A stretch of DNA of 11,368 bases, taken from assembly GCA_004524445.1 (NCBI GenBank), contig SDNP01000054.1, forward strand, positions 1-11,368. Reading direction: 5' to 3'. Every line of letters starts with the position of its first letter. The first letter of the stretch is position 1. This document shows positions 1 through 11,368 of the stretch, piece by piece. Source of the DNA: Candidatus Thorarchaeota archaeon (GTDB lineage: Archaea; Asgardarchaeota; Thorarchaeia; Thorarchaeales; Thorarchaeaceae). The notes beneath the pieces are model-generated. The model had not been told where the DNA came from and ran no database searches. It saw only the letters and a list, made by a program, of their open reading frames with translations. A program made the position numbers and the translations under genes.

Positions 1-2160
1 GTGATGTTATACGGGTCATCTGAAGCAGAGAACCATTCATCTGATTTGATGGTTCCTGTAAAACTTCCATCTCCATTGTTGTCTAATTGAAGACTCATTG
101 TGCCCCAACTGACGGTGATAACTGCATTCTCCCAGATTAGTCCGCCATGACGATCATCATAAAGATGTGCCGTAATGTCAAAGGAAGCAGACCAATTTAC
201 AGGGTCGATTGAATCAATCACAAGAGAGGCATCTGTTTCTTGCACTAGAATGATGACCGTGGTGAAGTCATGTGTCTGGAACCCTGACCGAGTTATCTCT
301 ATTCTGATGACATAGACCGGTCCTTCGCCAAACACATTCATGCCCAAGCCACGAGTGTCAACAGTGAAAGCGTATGTACCGTTGTTGTAGTCGCTTGTGT
401 CCATGATTGAGGTATCAAGGTCAACCAGATAATATGATGCAATCTCAGGTGACAATACTGGAGCGTTATCGAGTGTATTGTTCCAGTAGAACCTGACATC
501 AAACACATCAGCGTAGTATTTCTCGTAATAGTCTAGTTCCAGCACTATTTCATTTGGAACAGCCAAAATCCTCACGAATATGGTAGTGGAGTCTGAACTG
601 GCACCAGCCTTTGTTGCTACGATTTCAATCTCGTAGAAGTCCTCTTGAGGTACTGCATCATTTGCATCAAGGGATATGTTATAGATGCCACCAGCGAAAT
701 CATCTAGATTGCCGCTCTGGTCAATGACTGACTCCAAAAACCAGCTATAAGTAACGGTTGCTCCATCGACTGCTGCTCCAATTGATTGGTCCAACAGAAG
801 GATTTCCAGATTAAATGATTGCGTCCAGTAGACTTCTAATGGATTCTCTGCAGAACCATATTCCGCTTCAATAAAAAGTGGCACACGAATCGTTATGGTC
901 AGGGCTACTACATCTGATTCGTGATTGGCTTTGCTAAGATTAAGCTGAAAGATATAGGTTCCGGACTCGAAGGATCCTCCAAGGGTAACTTTGTATATTC
1001 CATCGCCCTCATATGTGAGCGTGACAGTATCACTCCAATTGTGACTGAATGTTGCACCATCAAGTCCAATATTACCCGAAATCCGAGTGTAATTCACTTG
1101 ATAGGTTGCTGACTCTAACCAGTCAATGGTCTGCGAATCCGATCCAACGACTTCAAGATTTGTTGGTGCTCTGGATACCGTTAAGAAAGCTGCCAAAGTT
1201 CCTGTTGCTTGTTGATAGTTATCTTTTGAACAGGTTACTGTTACATTCCAGTCTCCAACAGGTAACAAATCCTTGCCAAAGGTGTATGTGAATTCCGCTC
1301 CAGTTTCGGACAAAGTTCGACTAACATTCAGATATGAAATGCCATCCTTGGTATACCACCTTAATATTACAGATACACCGGTGAGACCAGCGTCAGAAGT
1401 ATTGCCTGGTAAATTGAAAACATACGAAAATGTCAATGAATGAGATGTGATATCCCAATCATAGTTATCCACAGTCAAATCGGTGACAAGCATTGGCACT
1501 TCTTTGATTAGCAATGAGATGGTGAAAGTCTGGTTAACATAATTTCTCTTTTCCAGTGAAATGCTCATAGAGTAGATGCCTACCGCCAAGTCATTCAGAG
1601 CACTAGCGGATAGAGAGTATGTACCATTTCCATTATCCACTAAGTCTCCCGAGCAGCTTGTGCCTATCACTGAGTATGAATATGTTCCGAGATCCGTCAC
1701 ATTTGCATCATTATCGTAGTCATCTAACCAGAATAAATGCGCTGAATGTGTGTTGTAATACTCACTGATTGTATCTGTTTCCTTACCTTCATTTGTTCGA
1801 GCAGGTTTGACGTCGATATAGATTGTCATCGGATTTGGATCGTCATGATCCACGCTATCAGAGTGTGCTCTAACCGTCATTACATATTGACCATCAATAA
1901 CATTCAGTCCCCATGCAGTGGCATTAACAACGATGGTGAAGTTAATTAGCGATGTGCGTGTTATCCAAGTGCCACTACCAGCCCATGTATCTTCGAAATA
2001 GGTAATACCGCCATAAGTGACAGTGATATTAAGCCAAGTTTGAGGTGATACAGCAGATGTGTCATTTTCGCCATCCCTGTCATACCATCCAACCACTAGC
2101 TGAGAATTATTTGTTTTCCACCGAACATTCACAATGCCAACTGTTGAATTCAACTCGGTG
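1..2160 (-). repeat. About seven tandem Ig-like (invasin/Big-like) ~100-aa repeats, continuing beyond the window
   Basis: Recurrent motifs: DNGNGTYSL, EGDGIYKV, DFAGGIYNI, DYNNGTYAF, NNGDGSF; GIYSMSISLEKRNY, GDWNVTVTCSKDNY, GTYIFQLNLSKANH, DFYEIEIVATKAG; DGATVTYSW / DGATFSHNW. Degenerate at the DNA level. Confidence 0.7.
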
Positions 2161-5100
2161 TACGCATCAGAATATGTAGGCGTTGATATGATTATCCAAT
2201 TGAAATACTCCCAGCCATAGTCCACCTTGGCCCCTAAAACCTGTCCGTATTCGTTACCAGAAACGACTGTAATATTGTAGGACACAGGACTATAGTAGGG
2301 AGCGGTTATGTTGCCATGGATATAGTAGAATATAATCCACCCAGTGCTGTTTGTTTTCCCTTGAGCTATGGGGTTTAGTGATGGTGTTCCACCTACTAGT
2401 GTTACGTTGACATCAGCATTGGAAACTGGATAGTTTTCACCGTCCTCTGTTGTCACTCTTATCCTGAGCTGGCTAATTGGAAGTTCAACAGTTTTGGATT
2501 GATAGCCTTGAAGATTGGCTATTGACTCTGTATCATTGAGAGCAGTAGGTGTATCACCATAGAGGTCGTCTTTGGTCACCTCGATACTCCAAGTACCGTT
2601 TACAATCCTATAGAATGTGAACTCTCCGGAGGAGTTTGTCCATTTAGTGATGTGATAACCTGTTTCGTTCTCATTAGTAATAGCCACCATTGCATTCTCA
2701 ACAGGGAGCTCATCCCAGCTCTCTACGTAGATATCGAGTGTGGTGAGAGGCAGTACCCAGTCTGGATGATCAAATGATCCAAGTGAGAATTCGCTGGATG
2801 ATATGGACCAGCTTCCAAACTTAGCCATATCTGAGTAGAGATAGCTATGAACGGGCCCATCATATCTGACGAAGATAGTGTAGTCATCAGCAGGCATTCT
2901 ATAGAATCTCGCCCATCCAGTGCTATTCGTTTCTTCGTAGTGAAGGAATACAGCAGGATTGCTACCATTGGTAACACGGACAGTAGTGGTATCATCCGGG
3001 GTTGCGTCCATAGAGTTACCCATTAAATCTTCGAAGTGAAGACTGAAGCTAGCCATTTCTAATGTGATTTCAATAGGTGTAACCGACCCAGTTATGGCAT
3101 GATCCGAGGTGTTTGTGACCCAAATTGAGCCTGAGGGGCTTGGAGATAACCAATTAGAAGCGTCTATTCTCGTCCTTACTTCGTAGGTTGCATTTAGGAG
3201 CCCTTCAAATACCACAAGGCCATTTGAATCTGTCACATCAGTTCTGTTTCGTCCCTGCTCGTCCAACCAAAGCGTACTATCTGTGGAATTGTATAGAGTG
3301 ATGCTTGCACCTTCGACTGGCACACCATCAAGGTCAACGACGGTGATGTCGAATTCGAACAAGTGACGTTCATCACCCTTTGCAATGACAAGACCATTCT
3401 CATCAGCCTCAGGAGTATATGCAGGCACGTGCCATCCGTATCCTGTGTCTCCTGTTGGGTTATAGGGTGATGAAGTTGAGAATAAGCCAAGGTCAACAAC
3501 ACCAATGCTTGCGTTGGATTCAATATGATAGAGGGTCATGCTTGATGAAACGGGGCGAAATGCTGCCATTCCACCTGCAGGTATTTCAAGAGTTCCATCA
3601 TTGAACCCGGTGATTTTAACTTCTGCATTCTCCAAAGCCACAATCATGAACTTGTAAGAGTTGATACCCCAGAGTTTGAAGGAAGAGCCGAACCGATGTC
3701 CTGAGGTGGTAGGTATCCAATCTCCAGCGTCTCTGGCATTTGTTGGGTCATAGAGACCCTCGACCATGAACATATCTCCAGAATTACGTGCTTTCAGGTG
3801 AAGGATATCCTCTGGATTCGTATCGCTTGCAGTACCAGGACCGATGGACTGAGAGCTATTGGCAAATATTTCCAAGGCGCCGCCGTATGACCAGACTGAA
3901 CCTGCGTTTCTCCACCAGTCCACAATTATCGTGGTTTCTTTTAAGTTTGTGACTCGTGTTCTGTCTTTGGAGTTTCCCATATCAATGGTATAGAATTCAT
4001 CACCAGCGAGTCCACCATCAACTGCGGGATAAAAGCCCCAAATGTCTCGAGCATGGGAAGCGTCATCGTCGCCAGCCCTTATGGATACAGGCTTTGTTGA
4101 ATTTACCTTCTTATAATCAGTGTAGAGAACATCTCCCTTGCTGATGTACTCTCCCGCATCTAAGGTCACTGGCCAATCCGTGTCAGAAACAGAGGTTTGA
4201 TTATAAAATGCCCATCCTGATTCTGCAGAACCAGATATGCTGGTGACCCATACCTCCGTATCATTCTCGTGAGCCTGAACCCAGTACATACCCTCGTTTC
4301 TGTCATCAAAACCTTCAACACCACCGATAATGAAGTGAGTACCTGTTCCATGGCTCATCTCGCTTACTCCAGGGAACCAGTCATTTATTGCAGAATTGGA
4401 GCCCTCGTTACCTTGCCCCATGCTAACTGCCATTGGATAATTGGAATATATTGCATAATAGCCATGGAATAGGGAATAGGAGTAGCTACTCGGCTCATAA
4501 CGAGCAGCATCATATTTGTCAAGAGTACCATAAGGAACATTGCTTGGATATACACTTCCGCTTGTTCCGGACCATCTATCATCAAGGTTCCTGGGATCAT
4601 CCCAGGTCTTACTTGAGGGGTCATACATCTCGATCAGGTAGTTGTTATCATCGTAATAAGATACCAAACTGAGCAGGGAGAATGTGTAGCTCTTGTAGAC
4701 AAATGGAAAGAAGTTCGGATGGCTTACTGACCCAACATCTTCCTTTGCATAGTAAATGTAATAGTTCTCTTCAGTATCTCCTTTTGAAACATTTACCATG
4801 AAGCTGACTCTGGTTGAAAGAACATAGTCACCAGTTGAGTCATAGGTTGTATTCCAAGTTTGGAACGGAAGAGGGGTCCAATCAGGGTTATCATAGTATG
4901 CCACTCTTATCGAGTCCCCGTAGCAGTGACCCTCAGTGAATGTAAGATATAGATGAACAGGAGAAAGTGTGCGTGAGGCTACGTTGGGTTCTGTGAAATT
5001 GAAATAACGTCTGTAAATATATGTGCTATTCCACCAGTTAGCCTCGTCTTGAGTGCCCGCAACCTCTAGATTACCGTGACGGATTTGTAATGAATTATCT

Positions 5101-5216
5101 GCGTCAAGAATTGGATTCTGATTTACAGGATTCGTTGCAGGATTGCCGGTGGCTAGAGGAAGCAACAATACAACAGCCAGCGCAGCTAGAACTAGAAATT
5201 TGGTAGAACGCTTCAC
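1..5216 (-). CDS. Giant secreted/cell-surface glycoprotein (>=1738 aa, 3' end beyond window): signal peptide, DUF2341-like region, IgGFc-binding-like repeats, carboxypeptidase-regulatory-like repeats and Ig-like repeats
   Basis: GTG start at 5216-5214 with SD GGAGGTG (5229-5223). Hand translation gives no in-frame stop down to position 1. The N-terminus MKRSTKFLVLAALAVVLLLPLATG looks like a Sec signal peptide. It is followed by NWWNSTYIYRRYFNF...ENYYIYYAK, repeated TDSNG/TNSTG and DNGNGTY-type beta-sandwich motifs, and about 40 N-x-S/T sequons (hand count). Confidence 0.93.
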   Translation of the reverse strand, partial: MKRSTKFLVLAALAVVLLLPLATGNPATNPVNQNPILDADNSLQIRHGNLEVAGTQDEANWWNSTYIYRRYFNFTEPNVASRTLSPVHLYLTFTEGHCYGDSIRVAYYDNPDWTPLPFQTWNTTYDSTGDYVLSTRVSFMVNVSKGDTEENYYIYYAKEDVGSVSHPNFFPFVYKSYTFSLLSLVSYYDDNNYLIEMYDPSSKTWDDPRNLDDRWSGTSGSVYPSNVPYGTLDKYDAARYEPSSYSYSLFHGYYAIYSNYPMAVSMGQGNEGSNSAINDWFPGVSEMSHGTGTHFIIGGVEGFDDRNEGMYWVQAHENDTEVWVTSISGSAESGWAFYNQTSVSDTDWPVTLDAGEYISKGDVLYTDYKKVNSTKPVSIRAGDDDASHARDIWGFYPAVDGGLAGDEFYTIDMGNSKDRTRVTNLKETTIIVDWWRNAGSVWSYGGALEIFANSSQSIGPGTASDTNPEDILHLKARNSGDMFMVEGLYDPTNARDAGDWIPTTSGHRFGSSFKLWGINSYKFMIVALENAEVKITGFNDGTLEIPAGGMAAFRPVSSSMTLYHIESNASIGVVDLGLFSTSSPYNPTGDTGYGWHVPAYTPEADENGLVIAKGDERHLFEFDITVVDLDGVPVEGASITLYNSTDSTLWLDEQGRNRTDVTDSNGLVVFEGLLNATYEVRTRIDASNWLSPSPSGSIWVTNTSDHAITGSVTPIEITLEMASFSLHFEDLMGNSMDATPDDTTTVRVTNGSNPAVFLHYEETNSTGWARFYRMPADDYTIFVRYDGPVHSYLYSDMAKFGSWSISSSEFSLGSFDHPDWVLPLTTLDIYVESWDELPVENAMVAITNENETGYHITKWTNSSGEFTFYRIVNGTWSIEVTKDDLYGDTPTALNDTESIANLQGYQSKTVELPISQLRIRVTTEDGENYPVSNADVNVTLVGGTPSLNPIAQGKTNSTGWIIFYYIHGNITAPYYSPVSYNITVVSGNEYGQVLGAKVDYGWEYFNWIIISTPTYSDAYTELNSTVGIVNVRWKTNNSQLVVGWYDRDGENDTSAVSPQTWLNITVTYGGITYFEDTWAGSGTWITRTSLINFTIVVNATAWGLNVIDGQYVMTVRAHSDSVDHDDPNPMTIYIDVKPARTNEGKETDTISEYYNTHSAHLFWLDDYDNDANVTDLGTYSYSVIGTSCSGDLVDNGNGTYSLSASALNDLAVGIYSMSISLEKRNYVNQTFTISLLIKEVPMLVTDLTVDNYDWDITSHSLTFSYVFNLPGNTSDAGLTGVSVILRWYTKDGISYLNVSRTLSETGAEFTYTFGKDLLPVGDWNVTVTCSKDNYQQATGTLAAFLTVSRAPTNLEVVGSDSQTIDWLESATYQVNYTRISGNIGLDGATFSHNWSDTVTLTYEGDGIYKVTLGGSFESGTYIFQLNLSKANHESDVVALTITIRVPLFIEAEYGSAENPLEVYWTQSFNLEILLLDQSIGAAVDGATVTYSWFLESVIDQSGNLDDFAGGIYNISLDANDAVPQEDFYEIEIVATKAGASSDSTTIFVRILAVPNEIVLELDYYEKYYADVFDVRFYWNNTLDNAPVLSPEIASYYLVDLDTSIMDTSDYNNGTYAFTVDTRGLGMNVFGEGPVYVIRIEITRSGFQTHDFTTVIILVQETDASLVIDSIDPVNWSASFDITAHLYDDRHGGLIWENAVITVSWGTMSLQLDNNGDGSFTGTIKSDEWFSASDDPYNI
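2170..3360 (-). repeat. Four carboxypeptidase-regulatory/transthyretin-like beta-sandwich repeats
   Basis: ITVVDLDGVPVEGASITL...TDSNGLVVFEGL; LHFEDLMG...TNSTGWARFYRM; IYVESWDELPVENAMVAI...TNSSGEFTFYRI; IRVTTEDGENYPVSNADVNV...TNSTGWIIFYYI. Period about 100 aa; boundaries approximate. Confidence 0.7.
3420..4690 (-). repeat. Four degenerate ~95-aa protein repeats resembling the IgGFc-binding (FCGBP N-terminal) domain
   Basis: Recurring motif sets: LVSYYDDNNYLI / VQAHENDTEVWV / VTNLKETTIIV / IVALENAEVKI; TLDKYD / TLDAGE / LEIFANS / LEIPAGG; IYSNYPMAV / VNSTKPVSI / IESNASIGV; DWFP..GTHF / FYP..GDEF / DWIP..GSSF. Boundaries approximate. Confidence 0.55.
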
Positions 5217-6380
5217 TTATTCCACCTCCATTGTAGCAGAAGCATTAGTCGGATGGAAATTCTTCAGAACTTCCAGATAATGCGTCGCCTGCCTGCTCGG
5301 GATATCCTCATCATTATACAGGTGAACAGTTCGCTCTATCAACCATTCGGGATATACTGTTACAACTTGAGGGCTACAATTCAGCATAATATGTTCACGG
5401 CCCTCCTCATCATTGATTCGAAACACAATGTTTCCTTTCTCAAGTTTCGTAATTACCTTCCTAACCTTGGACTTGTCCGCATCGAGTAGTTGAGGTAGGT
5501 CTTCGGTAAGCTGTGGGCCATCTCGGAGAATTTCAATAAGGTCATAGGCATCAAAGTCAAGGAGATATGTTGCAAGCTCTTGTGCTTCAGTCCATATTGT
5601 GTCAGATAAATCGCGGCGAAGTCGTGCCACGTAATTTCTATGATAGCGCTTAGCAGCACTCAAGTATTGGTCGCTAACCTCAGAAGGTAGTGCTCCTGAT
5701 TTTACCAATTTAAGTGTTGGAGATGATGTCTTCCGGAGAATAAATACTGCTCTGACCAGATAGATTACTTCAGTTGATAATCCCTCAACCCATCCTGTGG
5801 CGATTATGCCCATCTTCACCAAAGGACGAAGAACCATATCTATGTCGATTTTCTTTCCGACTTCTTCAAAGATTATTTGTTCAAGATCGCTCGACTCAAT
5901 CGTACCATTCCGAGTTAATGTCTGAAGAATGGCTCGACGAACGGGATCGTTTAACACGGATGCCTGCTGTTGCTCTGGTGTCATCATGGTATAGCGAGCA
6001 ATCTGTTTGTACAGCTTTGGCACCATATTCTTGTAAATATCGTCTTCAGTGTTCAAGAAAATCTGTGTCGCAATCTCTGGAAGTGCATCTTTGTAGACTT
6101 CGGGATCCTCATCAGGGTCCAGAACCAGAAAAACCATGGAGGGTTTGCCCTTCATGTGCATATTCAAACCGCCATAATACACTGCAAGTTTGAACTCGTC
6201 GAAGGAAAGGGACGTAAACCCAGGCTTCTGAGACTCTTCAGTTTCTCCAAGCGTGGCAATTCCGTATACTCTCATGCTCGTTGTGGGATCCAATCCAGTC
6301 TTGAATTTCTTCGGCGTCTTCGCTGTTACCACCGGACCGAGTTCATCATCCCACTTCAAAACAGCTAATCCTTTGGGCAT
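5217..6380 (-). CDS. Longin/uDENN (NPRL2-like) N-terminal domain plus two winged-helix domains; hypothetical Asgard-type protein
   Basis: 387-aa ORF. The N-terminus GLAVLKWDDELGPVVTAKTP matches the uDENN/NPRL2-type pattern (hydrophobic strand-F/W-D-x-x-x-G-P...P). Two wHTH-like segments: NDPVRRAILQTLTRNG...LRPLVKMGII and YDLIEILRDGP...VRKVITKLEKGNIV. Purine-rich GATGGAGAGA upstream of the ATG. Confidence 0.7.
   Translation of the reverse strand: MPKGLAVLKWDDELGPVVTAKTPKKFKTGLDPTTSMRVYGIATLGETEESQKPGFTSLSFDEFKLAVYYGGLNMHMKGKPSMVFLVLDPDEDPEVYKDALPEIATQIFLNTEDDIYKNMVPKLYKQIARYTMMTPEQQQASVLNDPVRRAILQTLTRNGTIESSDLEQIIFEEVGKKIDIDMVLRPLVKMGIIATGWVEGLSTEVIYLVRAVFILRKTSSPTLKLVKSGALPSEVSDQYLSAAKRYHRNYVARLRRDLSDTIWTEAQELATYLLDFDAYDLIEILRDGPQLTEDLPQLLDADKSKVRKVITKLEKGNIVFRINDEEGREHIMLNCSPQVVTVYPEWLIERTVHLYNDEDIPSRQATHYLEVLKNFHPTNASATMEVE
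5223..5229 (-). promoter_or_regulatory. Shine-Dalgarno site GGAGGTG for the giant surface protein, embedded in the last codons of the upstream gene
   Basis: The minus strand reads ATG GAG GTG GAA TAA GTG AAG. GGAGGTG lies 6 nt before the GTG start. Confidence 0.75.
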
Positions 6381-6635: not shown

Positions 6636-7817
6636 TCATATGCTGTTGCTTTCAAAAATAGTTACAATCATATTATTGCCGAATCCACCAATATTGTGTG
6701 TAAGACCTCTATGTGCGTTCGGTACCTGCAGACTTCCGGGAGCCCTATTTGTGAGTTGCAGGAAGATATCTCGAATCTGAGCAACACCGGTCGCACCCGT
6801 CGGATGGCCCCGTGCCTTCAAGCCTCCAGTTGTGTTGATTGGTATCTTACCGTCAACTTCAACATCTCCCGATTTGATTATTTCAATTCCCTTTCCTTGC
6901 TTAGCTAGCCCCATATCCTCAATGTCGATAATCTCCAAAATAGAGAATGCATCATGAAGTTCGAATACGTCTATGTCTTCAGGGCGTGTTTTTGCCATTC
7001 TGAACGCATCTCTTGCTGCATTCACCGTTGCTGAAAGAGATGTAAGAGACTCTCTATGCTGTACTGCTAAGAAATCAGTTGCATGCCCTATTCCCTTGAA
7101 TGTTGCCGAGTCGCCGATAACACCTAGTTTTCTTGCCTTTTCGGCAGATGCAAGTACAACGCTGGCTGCCCCGTCGCTAGTTGGACAACAATCAAAGAGA
7201 GTAAGGGGGCTTGATACTATTGGGCTTGCATTCACTTTTTCCACAGTGATTTCCTTTTGAAAGTGAGCCAAGGGATTTCTCGCACCGTTTCTATGAGCTT
7301 TTACTGGCACTAAGGATAACTCATCGCGGGTAAGTCCATAATCATGCATATATCGGCGGGCAATTAGGGCCGCCAAGGAAGCTGGTGTTGCTCCGTAGCG
7401 GGCTTCATTCTCCTTGGAAATCATCTTGGCGAGGATAGCGGATGCTCTTTCACGAGATACCTCCGACATCTTCTCCATACCAACGACCAAGACTAATTCA
7501 GCCAAACCAGAACGAATCATAGCAAAACCAGCCTCAACCGCACTTGCACCGGATGAAGGTCCGCTCTCAATACGAGTTCCCCCAGCTGGGACGATGCCCA
7601 ACGAATCAGCCATCAGAGTCGATAAATGACCTATTCCAGTAAATTCATCGGGATTCTGAGAAGCTACCAAGATGTGGTCAATCTTTTCGCCAGACGCCTG
7701 TGCGTCCTCAAGTGCCCTAAGTGAGGCATTTCTGGCGAGGTCTATGATGGATTCTTCCAAGTGCCCGAACTTGGTCATTCCTGCTCCAATGACATGAACA
7801 GATCCCAATATGACCAC
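6636..7817 (-). CDS. Thiolase-fold protein (archaeal/SCP2-type) lacking the catalytic cysteines
   Basis: Motifs VIGAGMTKFG, VGMEKMS, NGARNPLAHFQ, DCCPTSDGAA, ELHDAF, GGLKARGHPTGATG and HNIGG. The true start is probably TTG at 7808 (MGSVHVIGAG...), preceded by AGGTGG at 7819-7814. Confidence 0.9.
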   Translation of the reverse strand: MVILGSVHVIGAGMTKFGHLEESIIDLARNASLRALEDAQASGEKIDHILVASQNPDEFTGIGHLSTLMADSLGIVPAGGTRIESGPSSGASAVEAGFAMIRSGLAELVLVVGMEKMSEVSRERASAILAKMISKENEARYGATPASLAALIARRYMHDYGLTRDELSLVPVKAHRNGARNPLAHFQKEITVEKVNASPIVSSPLTLFDCCPTSDGAASVVLASAEKARKLGVIGDSATFKGIGHATDFLAVQHRESLTSLSATVNAARDAFRMAKTRPEDIDVFELHDAFSILEIIDIEDMGLAKQGKGIEIIKSGDVEVDGKIPINTTGGLKARGHPTGATGVAQIRDIFLQLTNRAPGSLQVPNAHRGLTHNIGGFGNNMIVTIFESNSI

Positions 7818-8336
7818 CTACTCGATTAGAATCAATAAGTCACTAGGTACAACGGACGCTCCGGGCTCCACATTTACCTCTCTAATCCTACCAGATTTGG
7901 GTGCTTTCAGTTCATTGAACATTTTCATGGCTTCGAGAATGCATAATGTATCGCCGTCTTGTACCGAATCATTGAGAGCAACATGGACCTCTGTTATTTT
8001 CCCAGGCATGGGAGGATAGACCCCTCCAGGATTTTTGGTTCCCGACGATAGCGGTGCTGAAACAGGTGTATCTGCCTTCTTAGCCCGCACCCACTCTAGT
8101 GTGTGTTTTTCTCCGTCCAGTTGGATTGATATAGTATTGCCAGATCGTTTGAGTACTTCCACTCGGTGGTCCGTAGTCCTGTTATTCACCGTCCAGATGC
8201 CATCTTCTCCCTTTGTGGGTTTCATGGTGAAGCTTTGGTCGCCAATTTTGACAACAATTACTCCACCTTCATCCAACAAGTCAACCTCTACATCATAAGT
8301 CACATCTGTAAATTCGGCTTTATACTCAGGACTCAT
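7818..8336 (-). CDS. Stand-alone biotin carboxyl carrier protein with an N-terminal beta-rich (BT-like) domain
   Basis: PMPGKI...VQDGDTLCILEAMKMFNELKAPKSGRI...PGASV; the biotinylated Lys lies in EAMKM (K138). An Ala/Pro/Ser linker follows an ~85-aa N-terminal domain. Confidence 0.92.
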   Translation of the reverse strand: MSPEYKAEFTDVTYDVEVDLLDEGGVIVVKIGDQSFTMKPTKGEDGIWTVNNRTTDHRVEVLKRSGNTISIQLDGEKHTLEWVRAKKADTPVSAPLSSGTKNPGGVYPPMPGKITEVHVALNDSVQDGDTLCILEAMKMFNELKAPKSGRIREVNVEPGASVVPSDLLILIE

Positions 8337-8425: not shown

Positions 8426-9994
8426 CTACATGCGTCGTGTCTGCTCTCTTCTTCCAGAGGCAACCCATGGTGAATCTACCTTGGCCCAGCTGCTTGTCGA
8501 AGCAGGGATAGGTCGTCTTTGTCCGTCTTCTCGCCCATTCGAAGTCCAAGTATCACTTGTACTGGAGGAGGCGACTGCAAATCCACCCCGCTTCTTCATC
8601 ATATGAAGGACCGATGCCATAATGGCGAGCTGATTTTCAGGAGTCATATCACCATGGTGCTTTCGTTTTGACTTACGTACGAGAAAGTCAAGTGCATATT
8701 GAGGATAGAGGGCATAAGATATTTCATCCCGGCGGTCATGTTCAATATCCTTGAGAGCCTTTCGTGCTTCAGGAAGCTCAGGTGGAAGTAGGCTTGCAGG
8801 TCGCTCTTCAAGGGTTTCTTCATCCCCAATGATTTTTTGCCGGATTTCGGGGTCTAGTGGGGCTGGGGGGCGTCCATAGAAACCTCGGACATACTGCTTG
8901 ACTTCATGGGGGACCATCTTGTAGCGTTCGCCAGTGATAACATTCATCGTTGCCTGAGTGCCAACAATTTGGGACGATGGGGTCACTAGTGGAGGATAAC
9001 CCAAATCAGCTCGGACTCTAGGAACTTCTTGAAGTACCTCGTCATACCGATCCAAGGCGCCCTGTTCTCTAAGCTGGTTATCTAGATTCGATAACATCCC
9101 TCCGGGAATCTGCCATATCAGAACCTGTGGATTTACCCCCTTAAGACTGCCTTCGAATTCTGTGTAGTTCCGTCTGATGTCTCTGAAATAATCAGCAATC
9201 TCGGATAGAAGATTGACGTCGAGACCTGTGTCCCTTTGTGTCCCCTTCAGAGATTCTACTATAGACTCTACAGCCGGTTGAGAAGTCGCCATAGAAAGTG
9301 GAGAAATTGCGCAGTCCACAACATCAACGCCAGCCTCTGCGCCCTTCAGATATGCCATCGAGGCCATACCACTAGTGTAATGTGAGTGAAGCTGAATTGG
9401 GATGTCCAGCTCGTCTTTCAACCTCTTGACTAAGTCATAAGCGGCGGTGGGGGTGATTAACCCGGCCATATCTTTGATGCAAATGGAGTCTGCGTCTAAC
9501 GCGTATAGTTCTTTGGCTTTCTCTACGAATCGCTCATTGTTGTGAACCGGACTAAGAGTATAACAGAAACTTGCCTGAACATGTCCGCCTTCACGCTTTA
9601 CAAACCGCATTGATGGTTCCATATTTCTTACATCGTTTAGTGCATCGAAGATTCTGAATATGTCAATGCCAGCTTTGACAGCCTCTTCTATGAATGCTTC
9701 AAGGACATCGTCACTATATTGACGATACCCAACAATATTCGACCCTCTAAGTAGCATCTGGAATGGGGTTTTTGGCATTACGTCCTTTAAATTCTCAACA
9801 CGTTCCCACGGGTCCTCGTCCAAGAAGCGCATCATGCTATCAAACGTTGCTCCACCCCACATCTCTAGTGAATGGTATCCAACCTGATCAATTGTTTCAC
9901 ATATAGGTAGCATGTGCTCAGTGCGCATTCGTGTTGCAATCAATGATTGATGTGCATCGCGAAGGGTGGTATCAGTAATCTTCAGTTTCGTCAT
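8426..9994 (-). CDS. Pyruvate/oxaloacetate carboxyltransferase (PycB / OadA / transcarboxylase 5S family), no biotinyl domain
   Basis: Motifs DTTLRDAHQSLIATRM, EMWGGATFD, FQMLLRG, FRIFDALND, CIKDMAG, LHSH, QIPGGMLSN and LGYPPLVTPSSQIVG are all intact. No AMKM motif. Symbol left blank because pycB, oadA and 5S cannot be told apart from the sequence alone. Confidence 0.93.
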   Translation of the reverse strand: MTKLKITDTTLRDAHQSLIATRMRTEHMLPICETIDQVGYHSLEMWGGATFDSMMRFLDEDPWERVENLKDVMPKTPFQMLLRGSNIVGYRQYSDDVLEAFIEEAVKAGIDIFRIFDALNDVRNMEPSMRFVKREGGHVQASFCYTLSPVHNNERFVEKAKELYALDADSICIKDMAGLITPTAAYDLVKRLKDELDIPIQLHSHYTSGMASMAYLKGAEAGVDVVDCAISPLSMATSQPAVESIVESLKGTQRDTGLDVNLLSEIADYFRDIRRNYTEFEGSLKGVNPQVLIWQIPGGMLSNLDNQLREQGALDRYDEVLQEVPRVRADLGYPPLVTPSSQIVGTQATMNVITGERYKMVPHEVKQYVRGFYGRPPAPLDPEIRQKIIGDEETLEERPASLLPPELPEARKALKDIEHDRRDEISYALYPQYALDFLVRKSKRKHHGDMTPENQLAIMASVLHMMKKRGGFAVASSSTSDTWTSNGREDGQRRPIPASTSSWAKVDSPWVASGRREQTRRM

Positions 9995-10100
9995 GGCTTA
10001 ACGTAGCTAGGACTACCGTGATAGTATATAGTAGTTCTGCTGCGTTCCGCTTTTCGGAATATCATCATGAGAAAAGAATCTCGCATTTCTAATTCCTTAA

Positions 10101-10361
10101 GTGAAGAAAACGGGAGAAAAGAACCGAAATAACATGAATAATGAAAAGGTGTGGGGCTTTGAGGGTTGTGGCTGTATGTGGACTTTTTTCAAGAACCGCG
10201 ATATGGCATGTTCTAATGCGGGAGATAATACCGTTTGGGAAGTCACTCTTGAGCGTGCATATGAGCTTGATAATAAACGGAGGCAGGAGCTAGACTTCGA
10301 CAAGATTACTCTAGAGGAATTCAAGGAATGCGTCGACCACCCGATGTATTGTAACGAATAA
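10101..10361 (+). CDS. Small Cys-rich hypothetical protein (probable start ATG 10134, 75 aa)
   Basis: Protein-like composition (KVWGFEGCGCMWTFF...VWEVTLERAYELD...ITLEEFKECVDHPMYCNE). It fills the gap between divergent genes in the same orientation as the downstream genes. Confidence 0.6.
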   Translation: MKKTGEKNRNNMNNEKVWGFEGCGCMWTFFKNRDMACSNAGDNTVWEVTLERAYELDNKRRQELDFDKITLEEFKECVDHPMYCNE

Positions 10362-10458
10362 GAGACCCATTTCGCTATCTCGGGATACTACTTATGTAAA
10401 TCCAAGGATCTATCCCACTTTTGAACCGATCTACACATCATCTACCAATAGGCTTTAG

Positions 10459-11183: not shown

Positions 11184-11368
11184 ATGGAAAAAGCAACGTT
11201 TGGCGGCGGATGCTTTTGGTGCGTCGAGGCCGTCTTTGAAAAAATGAAGGGCGTAAGGTCAGTAGTATCCGGGTATGCAGGCGGCCATGTTGAGAACCCA
11301 ACATACCAGCAGGTCACTACCGGTAAGACAGGTCACGCCGAAGTCGCTCAGATAGAGTACGACCCAGA
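11184..11368 (+). CDS. msrA: Peptide-methionine (S)-S-oxide reductase MsrA (5' partial)
   Basis: Hand translation from ATG 11184: [61 protein letters not shown]. It contains the GCFWC, SGYAGG and TGHAE signatures. Not in the ORF track because it runs off the window. Confidence 0.97.

Follow-up and report, generated by a model that had tools for sequence, protein, structure and literature searches.

The stretch of DNA examined here (the window, 11,368 nucleotides) is contig SDNP01000054.1 (C17), which ends at 11368, of Candidatus Thorarchaeota archaeon, whose assembly GCA_004524445.1 (G000) is 90% complete. It encodes a thiolase-like protein (6636 to 7817) in which a proline, Pro87, stands where thiolases carry their nucleophilic cysteine. 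This proline occurs in every one of 121 clade sequences, that is the query and its 120 best database homologues, together with both active-site histidines, and the gene appears to be the last of an operon for a methylmalonyl-CoA:pyruvate transcarboxylase. Judged from these residues, the label 'acetyl-CoA acetyltransferase' cannot hold for the protein. Tentatively, it is read here as part of a non-thiolytic, DUF35-partnered enzyme that would make an acyl-CoA enolate, for example by decarboxylation of (methyl)malonyl-CoA.

A fixed proline at the nucleophile position

Both the domains (Pfam Thiolase_N, 1.4e-24, and Thiolase_C_1, 2.4e-41) and the AlphaFold2 (AF2) model (pLDDT 97.3, from 110 homologues) assign the protein to the archaeal/SCP2-type thiolase superfamily, with its five-layer alpha-beta-alpha-beta-alpha fold. 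It scores 428 bits with NCBIfam PRK06064 ('thiolase domain-containing protein'; cut-off 420) and 348 with the archaeal acetyl-CoA acetyltransferase equivalog model of the same database, for which the cut-off is 600. Translation likely starts at TTG 7808, which has GGTG ahead of it and yields 390 residues, and the database copy (P0002) has this 390-aa form.

An earlier, sequence-only reading of the window had assigned Pro87 (codon 7559-7557), within RIESGPSSG (residues 82-90), to the nucleophile register, and had suggested a structural alignment with the Methanothermococcus thiolase as a check. The register proves to be correct. In phmmer alignments to the best PDB-sequence matches, namely the Pyrococcus furiosus (7YVY, 8e-93), M. 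thermolithotrophicus (6ESQ, 5e-77) and Sulfolobus tokodaii ST0096 (4YZO) enzymes, Pro87 falls exactly on the nucleophilic Cys (IEaaCASG or VEaaCASG), with no gap from the preceding strand to the following helix, and the AF2 model matches the M. thermolithotrophicus thiolase (6ET9/6ESQ) with a TM score of 0.95. The latter, which is the acetoacetyl-CoA thiolase of a thiolase/HMG-CoA synthase/DUF35 complex, and P. furiosus PFC_04095 (7YVY) equal the window protein in length and show no indels around the motifs; unlike it they have the nucleophilic Cys, 6ESQ has HDCF, and here no HMG-CoA synthase gene is linked. The proline codon, CCT, is two changes away from the Cys codon TGT and one from the Ser codon TCT.

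That reading had also listed His288, His338 of GHP and the HNIGG loop as kept, with DCCP as the only site holding cysteines, all of which is borne out by the translation of 6636-7817 on the reverse strand. The change from HDCF to HDAF, to which it had drawn attention, is there but is not distinctive, HDAF being found in the Cys-bearing 7YVY and in 20 of 78 Cys-type representative clusters as well. Set against a competent thiolase (EC 2.3.1.9 or 2.3.1.16), the clade thus has Pro throughout in place of the nucleophilic Cys of CxS and, with HDAF and HNIGG, lacks the acid/base Cys of HDCF or CxG (a Cys that the HDCF site of 7YVY lacks too), while the His pair of oxyanion hole 1, His288 and His338, is present in all 121 sequences. 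As Cys at the DCCP site is also common among Cys-type relatives, Cys210 and Cys211 do not appear to be a clade-specific replacement nucleophile. Three positions before His288, residue 285 (6963-6965) is Cys in 95 of the 121 clade sequences (C-E-L-H-D-A-F); this Cys is not essential, for the protein of the window has Phe there.

A sequencing error or a private mutation, with Cys in close orthologues, was among the outcomes that the sequence-only reading had named as fatal to it. This is ruled out, since G-P-S-[SA]-G stands in every one of the 120 best homologues, besides HDAF, GHP and [HQ]NIGG. These proteins are 63-87% identical to the query and, if labelled at all, are labelled Thorarchaeota, Sifarchaeia or Promethearchaeota. 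Within the family of the window's genome (f1, 16 genera), an orthologue with at least 61% identity is present in 40 of 43 genomes, and none is found in any other genome of the 201-genome phylum sample. Moreover, the site is strictly Pro, with no mix of small residues, in several lineages at 42-49% identity, which argues for selection rather than decay.

His288, His338 and Asn375 are retained in all 121 clade members and also in nearly all other Pro-type clusters, and their invariance is more in keeping with a non-thiolytic activity that has been retained than with decay. To this extent the non-thiolase activity proposed by the sequence-only reading finds support, while the Ltp2 analogy offered along with it does not (see below). 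The same residues weigh on the idea of a pseudoenzyme, in which the Pro-thiolase and its DUF35 partner would perform no catalysis and act as an acyl-CoA-binding scaffold or regulatory subunit, for example by tethering the transcarboxylase and an acyl-CoA dehydrogenase (ACAD). Not only are the three residues invariant, but the f1 branch is not accelerated (FastTree tip ~0.34, median 0.63), other Cys-less relatives (Gly, Asn and Glu types) have often lost His338, which is what decay looks like, and the Pro-thiolase is missing from the transcarboxylase operons seen in other Asgard families. On the other side, both catalytic Cys are missing, the proline removes the NH of oxyanion hole 2, the tight translational coupling to the biotin carboxyl carrier protein (BCCP) suggests stoichiometric co-production, and DUF35 scaffolds are known from the archaeal thiolase/HMG-CoA synthase and fatty-acid-synthase complexes (bioRxiv 10.1101/2024.07.05.601840). 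A protein devoid of catalysis is considered somewhat unlikely.

Phylogeny of the cysteine-free clade

The whole library, reduced to representatives at 50% identity, was searched with HMMER, and among the 150 nearest clusters the nucleophile position is unexpectedly diverse, being occupied by C, S, P, G, D, N, T, A or E. In an unrooted FastTree phylogeny of 142 representatives, the query belongs to a clade of 37 clusters without any Cys (100% SH-like support), with Ser in 20 of them, Pro in 12, Gly in two, Thr and Phe in one each and one gapped, and with HDAF or HDMF throughout. The GPxSG type, for which the sequence-only reading had proposed a phylogeny as if for a clade of its own, is hence no isolated oddity, being nested within a Cys-free Ser/Pro clade. 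Two separate Pro groups are resolved by IQ-TREE (quick mode, unrooted): the f1 clade (100% support) joins P0125 and P0129, and the Asgard Pro types of families f7, f9 and f19 (42-49% identity) join a bacterial Pro group (P0128 and others) and haloarchaeal Ser types (93%). Ser and Pro interchange within the clade, and Pro seems to have arisen at least twice. The bacterial P0128 (IENGPASG; L068:5307-7541) has two flanking genes, one abutting it, for a 229-aa protein without a family, and one overlapping, for a 117-aa zinc-ribbon (zf-ChsH2) protein.

Also inside the Cys-free clade is the '3-ketoacyl-CoA thiolase' of Hfx. mediterranei pHM500 (RIDQTSSSG, HDMF, 40% identity to the query), whose gene is overlapped at its end by a DUF35 gene; lying where pHM500 begins, this gene is putatively bktB-alpha. 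Haloarchaeal BktB/PhaA alpha subunits are 'Ser-His-His' enzymes that require a DUF35 beta subunit (reviews PMC7137286, PMC9049629). The window protein shares with them the placement in the Cys-free HDAF/HDMF clade, both His, a DUF35 partner and a link to propionyl-CoA metabolism. It differs in having Pro in place of Ser, so that not even an oxy-ester intermediate is possible, in the position of its gene within a transcarboxylase operon, and in that an island has split off the DUF35 gene in its genome.

Such relatives raise the prospect of a BktB-type beta-ketothiolase, which would interconvert propionyl-CoA plus acetyl-CoA and 3-ketovaleryl-CoA, or cleave 2-methylacetoacetyl-CoA in isoleucine or odd-chain breakdown, either with Ser88 or Cys210/211 as the nucleophile or non-covalently, with DUF35 holding the second CoA ester. 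Nesting among the haloarchaeal ketothiolases and the interchange of Ser and Pro speak for it, as do the neighbouring ACAD and propionyl-CoA-processing enzymes, the context of a propionyl-CoA-releasing thiolase. Ser88 is invariant in the Thorarchaeota clade, yet it is Ala in other Pro-type lineages (GPASG) and corresponds by homology to the buried Ala of C-A-S-G; Cys210, for its part, is equally common in Cys-type thiolases. Since proline would also abolish oxyanion hole 2, needed for thioester activation, a ketothiolase of this type is judged unlikely.

Operon and partner genes

The gene for BCCP lies directly upstream of the Pro-thiolase gene in 17 of 18 clade loci (the exception is L017) and on three further contigs (L001-L003). 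The distance from the BCCP stop to the thiolase start is -8 to +14 nt, and that from the 5S-type carboxyltransferase gene to the BCCP gene mostly -1 to +4 nt; in the window, the BCCP stop codon abuts the thiolase-like gene start. The Pro-thiolase is therefore predicted, for f1, to be the last gene of a 12S-5S-BCCP operon and to be translationally coupled to BCCP. The BCCP-thiolase arrangement is kept across the 16 genera with otherwise different flanks, and insertions in the clade loci lie after the thiolase gene, never between it and BCCP.

A coupling this tight might be taken to indicate a thiolase-fold carboxyltransferase, i.e. a second site for carboxybiotin-BCCP where CO2 would be moved to or from an acyl-CoA enolate, and hence an ATP-independent transcarboxylase of a new type. 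Biotin carboxylase being found in none of 46 family genomes and OadB in neither of the two genomes searched would suit such an enzyme. The canonical 12S subunit is, however, encoded in 41 of the 46 family genomes (a TIGR01117 mmdA-subfamily protein, 853 bits), often directly upstream of 5S (e.g. in G047, G082, G186 and L024), and on this ground the related notion of an orphan 5S/BCCP pair with the thiolase as its second carboxyltransferase is largely rejected. Furthermore, the transcarboxylase appears to be independent of the Pro-thiolase, since families f12 and f13 have MCE-BPL-12S-5S-BCCP(-MCM-B12-MeaB) clusters (MCE, methylmalonyl-CoA epimerase; BPL, biotin ligase; MCM, methylmalonyl-CoA mutase) without a thiolase-like gene, and f7, f9 and f19 have Pro-type thiolases with no 5S or BCCP. 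A carboxyltransferase role is very improbable. An attempt to predict a complex of two thiolase copies with BCCP scored 0.00, which is no answer and counts as evidence neither way.

Downstream, the order is thiolase-DUF35-ACAD in L009 and L015 and thiolase-124 aa-DUF35-113 aa-ACAD in L002. The orthologue of this DUF35 in the window's own genome is an orphan, the fourth DUF35 of the genome (C38:60427-60735), with an intact C-x2-C-x10-C-x2-C zinc ribbon; the ACAD beside it is 81% identical to that of L002, and both are found where contig C38 ends, an end that continues the window. On the gene level, then, a dedicated DUF35 (zinc ribbon plus OB) exists for the Pro-thiolase, and the C38 protein is its putative beta subunit. 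In this genome the two are separated by a longin/giant-protein/Arf island (seen in window 1-6380 and C38:59164-66910) that is missing from L002, L009 and L015; the 387-aa gene next to the Pro-thiolase belongs to it, along with those of the giant protein and the Arf GTPase, and is rejected as a member of the operon. The genome has three further thiolase paralogues, each with its own adjacent DUF35, two being Cys types with HDCF and one a Gly type with HDAF. The Gly-type paralogue (C63:18330-18758, L007) reads ENGGNTG, HDAF, YGHPV and VNSHAG in a 420-aa frame and adjoins an unusually long DUF35 gene (237-aa frame).

Pro-type genes of other Asgard families also have methylmalonyl-CoA enzymes as neighbours. 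In f7 (L074:2521-6998, reverse strand; L073 is similar) a bacterial-type thiolase (Thiolase_N plus Thiolase_C), the Pro-type thiolase (IENGPASG), a DUF35 and MCM are encoded by overlapping genes; in f18 MCM and MeaB lie 1.4 kb from the Pro-type gene, and in f19 MCM lies 6 kb away. Because these lineages are not orthologous to the Pro-thiolase of f1, there are two separate lineages in which Pro-type thiolases are linked to the methylmalonyl-CoA pathway. Adjacency of thiolase and carboxylase genes also occurs with ordinary thiolases: two actinobacterial metagenome-assembled genomes (L064:2255-7152 and L051) have a Cys-type SCP2 thiolase (HVENACASGG, HDCF) within 3 kb of a 12S-type carboxyltransferase, L064 with a biotinyl-domain gene in addition.

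Possible catalytic role

In thiolases, oxyanion hole 2 is built from two backbone NH groups, that of the nucleophile residue and that of a C-terminal Gly, and oxyanion hole 1 consists of the His pair and stabilises the enolate that the bound acyl-CoA forms. Proline has neither a thiol nor an amide NH, so that half of oxyanion hole 2 would be missing and the Pro type would form no acyl-enzyme and would leave the electrophilic thioester unactivated; on these grounds, the standard route to thiolysis or Claisen condensation is excluded. What is left is oxyanion hole 1. In the reading that is tentatively preferred, the Pro-thiolase would pair, as alpha subunit, with a DUF35 zinc-ribbon/OB beta subunit to form a thiolase-like enzyme; the two His of the alpha subunit would polarise a bound CoA thioester, probably the methylmalonyl-, malonyl- or propionyl-CoA of the methylmalonyl-CoA pathway, and the enolate of the ester would be stabilised without a covalent intermediate. 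Biotin-independent decarboxylation of (methyl)malonyl-CoA would be the most plausible reaction.

There are parallels for thiolase-superfamily sites working without an acyl-Cys. In the Cys-less KSQ ketosynthases, loading domains of polyketide synthases, the retained oxyanion hole drives malonyl decarboxylation. TbSLP, the SCP2-thiolase-like protein of Trypanosoma brucei, is a slow malonyl-CoA decarboxylase, according to the account given in PMC12329534. A parallel of another kind is the sbm operon of Escherichia coli, in which a mutase is paired with a methylmalonyl-CoA decarboxylase.

Several points weigh against decarboxylation. KSQ carries Gln at the former Cys position and acts on acyl carrier protein esters, whereas the Pro type carries Pro; the comparison, with the His pair retained in both, concerns the mechanism only. 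TbSLP has YDCF, and its rate is very low in that same account. Since a complete transcarboxylase is present, another activity that decarboxylates methylmalonyl-CoA seems redundant. The BktB/PhaA relatives are genuine ketothiolases acting on propionyl-CoA, the adjoining ACAD fits a role in beta-oxidation, and the context therefore points just as much to thiolase-type work, of which the active site seems incapable. Finally, the 5S-BCCP-thiolase linkage, confined to f1, represents one evolutionary event.

The Ltp2 retro-aldolase, to which the sequence-only reading had likened the protein, is a less fitting model. A lyase of the Ltp2/Sal kind would split 3-hydroxyacyl-CoA substrates, releasing propionyl- or acetyl-CoA as the acyl-CoA together with a carbonyl compound, and Ltp2-ChsH2 and Sal-Shy are indeed Cys-less SCP2-type folds that work with a DUF35 domain, 6OK1 and 9MYR being among the fold matches (PMC12329534). 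The defining catalytic Tyr of their YDHF or YDCY is nevertheless His here (HDAF; PMC12329534), and the backbone NH of the Gly at their former nucleophile position is something that proline cannot supply. Ltp2 is also far removed in sequence (E 3e-31, where archaeal thiolases reach 8e-93), all of which makes a retro-aldolase quite unlikely.

The transcarboxylase genes

Upstream of the Pro-thiolase, the window encodes BCCP and the 5S-type carboxyltransferase (Table 1). Together with 12S they are predicted to form a methylmalonyl-CoA:pyruvate transcarboxylase, the same reading that has been given to these genes, and to the methylmalonyl-CoA pathway, in Asgard archaea (Imachi 2020, PMC7015854). 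Pyruvate carboxylase and the Na+ pump oxaloacetate decarboxylase were considered for the 5S/BCCP pair and rejected, as none of the 46 family genomes searched yields a biotin carboxylase, and neither G000 nor the complete Thorarchaeota genome G001, the two genomes searched for it, yields OadB. Orthologues of 5S are also found in families f12, f13 and f18.

As in the Propionibacterium-type transcarboxylase (12S/5S/1.3S), there are a 12S, a 5S with PYC_OADA and a small EAMKM carrier, biotin carboxylase is not found, and MCE, MCM and MeaB are nearby. In contrast to that system, the 5S has a W-x-x-x-G-R tail, BCCP has an extra N-terminal domain, and, in f1 only, a thiolase-like fourth gene is coupled to BCCP. 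The tail is kept in 15 of 15 clade loci inspected; an epsilon/OadG-like identity was tried for it and dropped, there being no Pfam match even at E 10. The N-terminal part of BCCP (8025-8336, reverse strand) is a conserved beta-rich domain of about 100 aa. In propionyl-CoA carboxylase, a PCC_BT domain ties the carrier and 12S-type subunits together; an identity of the BCCP N-terminus with this BT domain was rejected, the PCC_BT match (E 0.01, 16 bits) being below the cut-off. A 103-aa gene called upstream of 5S in L001/G144 has its counterpart here at 10092-10385 (reverse strand, 49% identity) with in-frame stops, and the call is probably not a real gene.

The assembly of the window lacks 12S, biotin ligase, epimerase, mutase, MeaB and the B12 subunit because the contig ends where it does. 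In G144, of the same genus, all six and a CoA transferase are encoded 2-17 kb past the equivalent of 11368, with 12S about 2 kb beyond 5S. The methylmalonyl-CoA island of that genome (G144:C1:195000-232000; L081, L082) also holds a two-subunit CoA transferase, a GlcD/CCG-type dehydrogenase and a corrinoid adenosyltransferase, the last of these accompanied by a second mutase-like gene of 594 aa. Across the family, epimerase is encoded in 40 and mutase in 45 of 46 genomes, and MCE, MCM and MeaB are always 10-55 kb away from the Pro-thiolase gene in f1. That the Pro-thiolase might replace a missing epimerase was likewise rejected, a canonical epimerase scoring above the cut-off, beside MCM, in those 40 genomes.

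Table 1. Features of the Pro-thiolase locus; coordinates are those of the window
Feature	Position	Strand	Description
Pro-type thiolase-like protein, putative alpha subunit	6636..7817	(-)	393 aa from GTG 7817; Pfam Thiolase_N + Thiolase_C_1
Codon CCT, Pro87, nucleophilic-Cys position	7557..7559	(-)	phmmer alignment without gaps around the motif; Pro in 121/121 clade sequences
HDAF, His288-Phe291 (SCP2-type HDCF with acid/base Cys replaced by Ala)	6945..6956	(-)	His288 invariant in 110 aligned family members
GHP with His338, residues 337-339	6801..6809	(-)	sequence motif
HNIGG C-terminal loop, residues 374-378; Asn375 where bacterial thiolases have the CxG Cys	6684..6698	(-)	
Cys210-Cys211 (DCCP), sole cysteines of the thiolase-like protein	7185..7190	(-)	
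BCCP, 172 aa, EAMKM with Lys138 (codon 7925-7923)	7818..8336	(-)	Pfam Biotin_lipoyl 2e-17
5S-type (pyruvate/oxaloacetate) carboxyltransferase, 522 aa, without biotinyl domain	8426..9994	(-)	HMGL-like + PYC_OADA; PRK09282 741 bits
5S C-terminal tail of ~70 aa	8429..8638	(-)	helix (MTPE..LAI.ASVLHM), then W-x-x-x-G-R, W, W-x-x-S-G-R
387-aa protein of island	5217-6380		downstream of thiolase-like gene
Giant protein (>1738 aa), runs off contig	3-5216		island member
Arf-like GTPase of island	contig C38		

Implications

No description of Pro-type thiolase homologues was found in the library of papers searched. Asgard genomes have been credited with several ketothiolase/DUF35 pairs each, in support of the making or fermenting of fatty acids by these archaeal relatives of the eukaryotes (bioRxiv 10.1101/2024.07.05.601840; PMC7015854), and such pairs have so far been counted irrespective of their catalytic residues. 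In the genome of the window, two of the four thiolase/DUF35 paralogues, one Pro and one Gly type, lack the catalytic Cys. The Pro form, universal in the family f1, is met again in haloarchaea, in bacteria and in Asgard families other than f1, so that this capacity is overstated if such genes are counted as thiolases.

Another conceivable role for the Pro-thiolase/DUF35 pair, and a very unlikely one, is C-C bond chemistry on the thioesters of the methylmalonyl-CoA pathway without a covalent intermediate, for example a carboxybiotin-linked or decarboxylation-driven condensation of the Claisen type, coupled through BCCP. Were it true, it would be a new catalytic mode of the thiolase fold and would give Asgard archaea an ATP-free drive for acyl-chain extension, pulling the uphill ketothiolase reaction.

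Taken together, the strict proline, the intact His pair and the repeated methylmalonyl-CoA neighbours point to an uncharacterised reaction in propionate/succinate metabolism.

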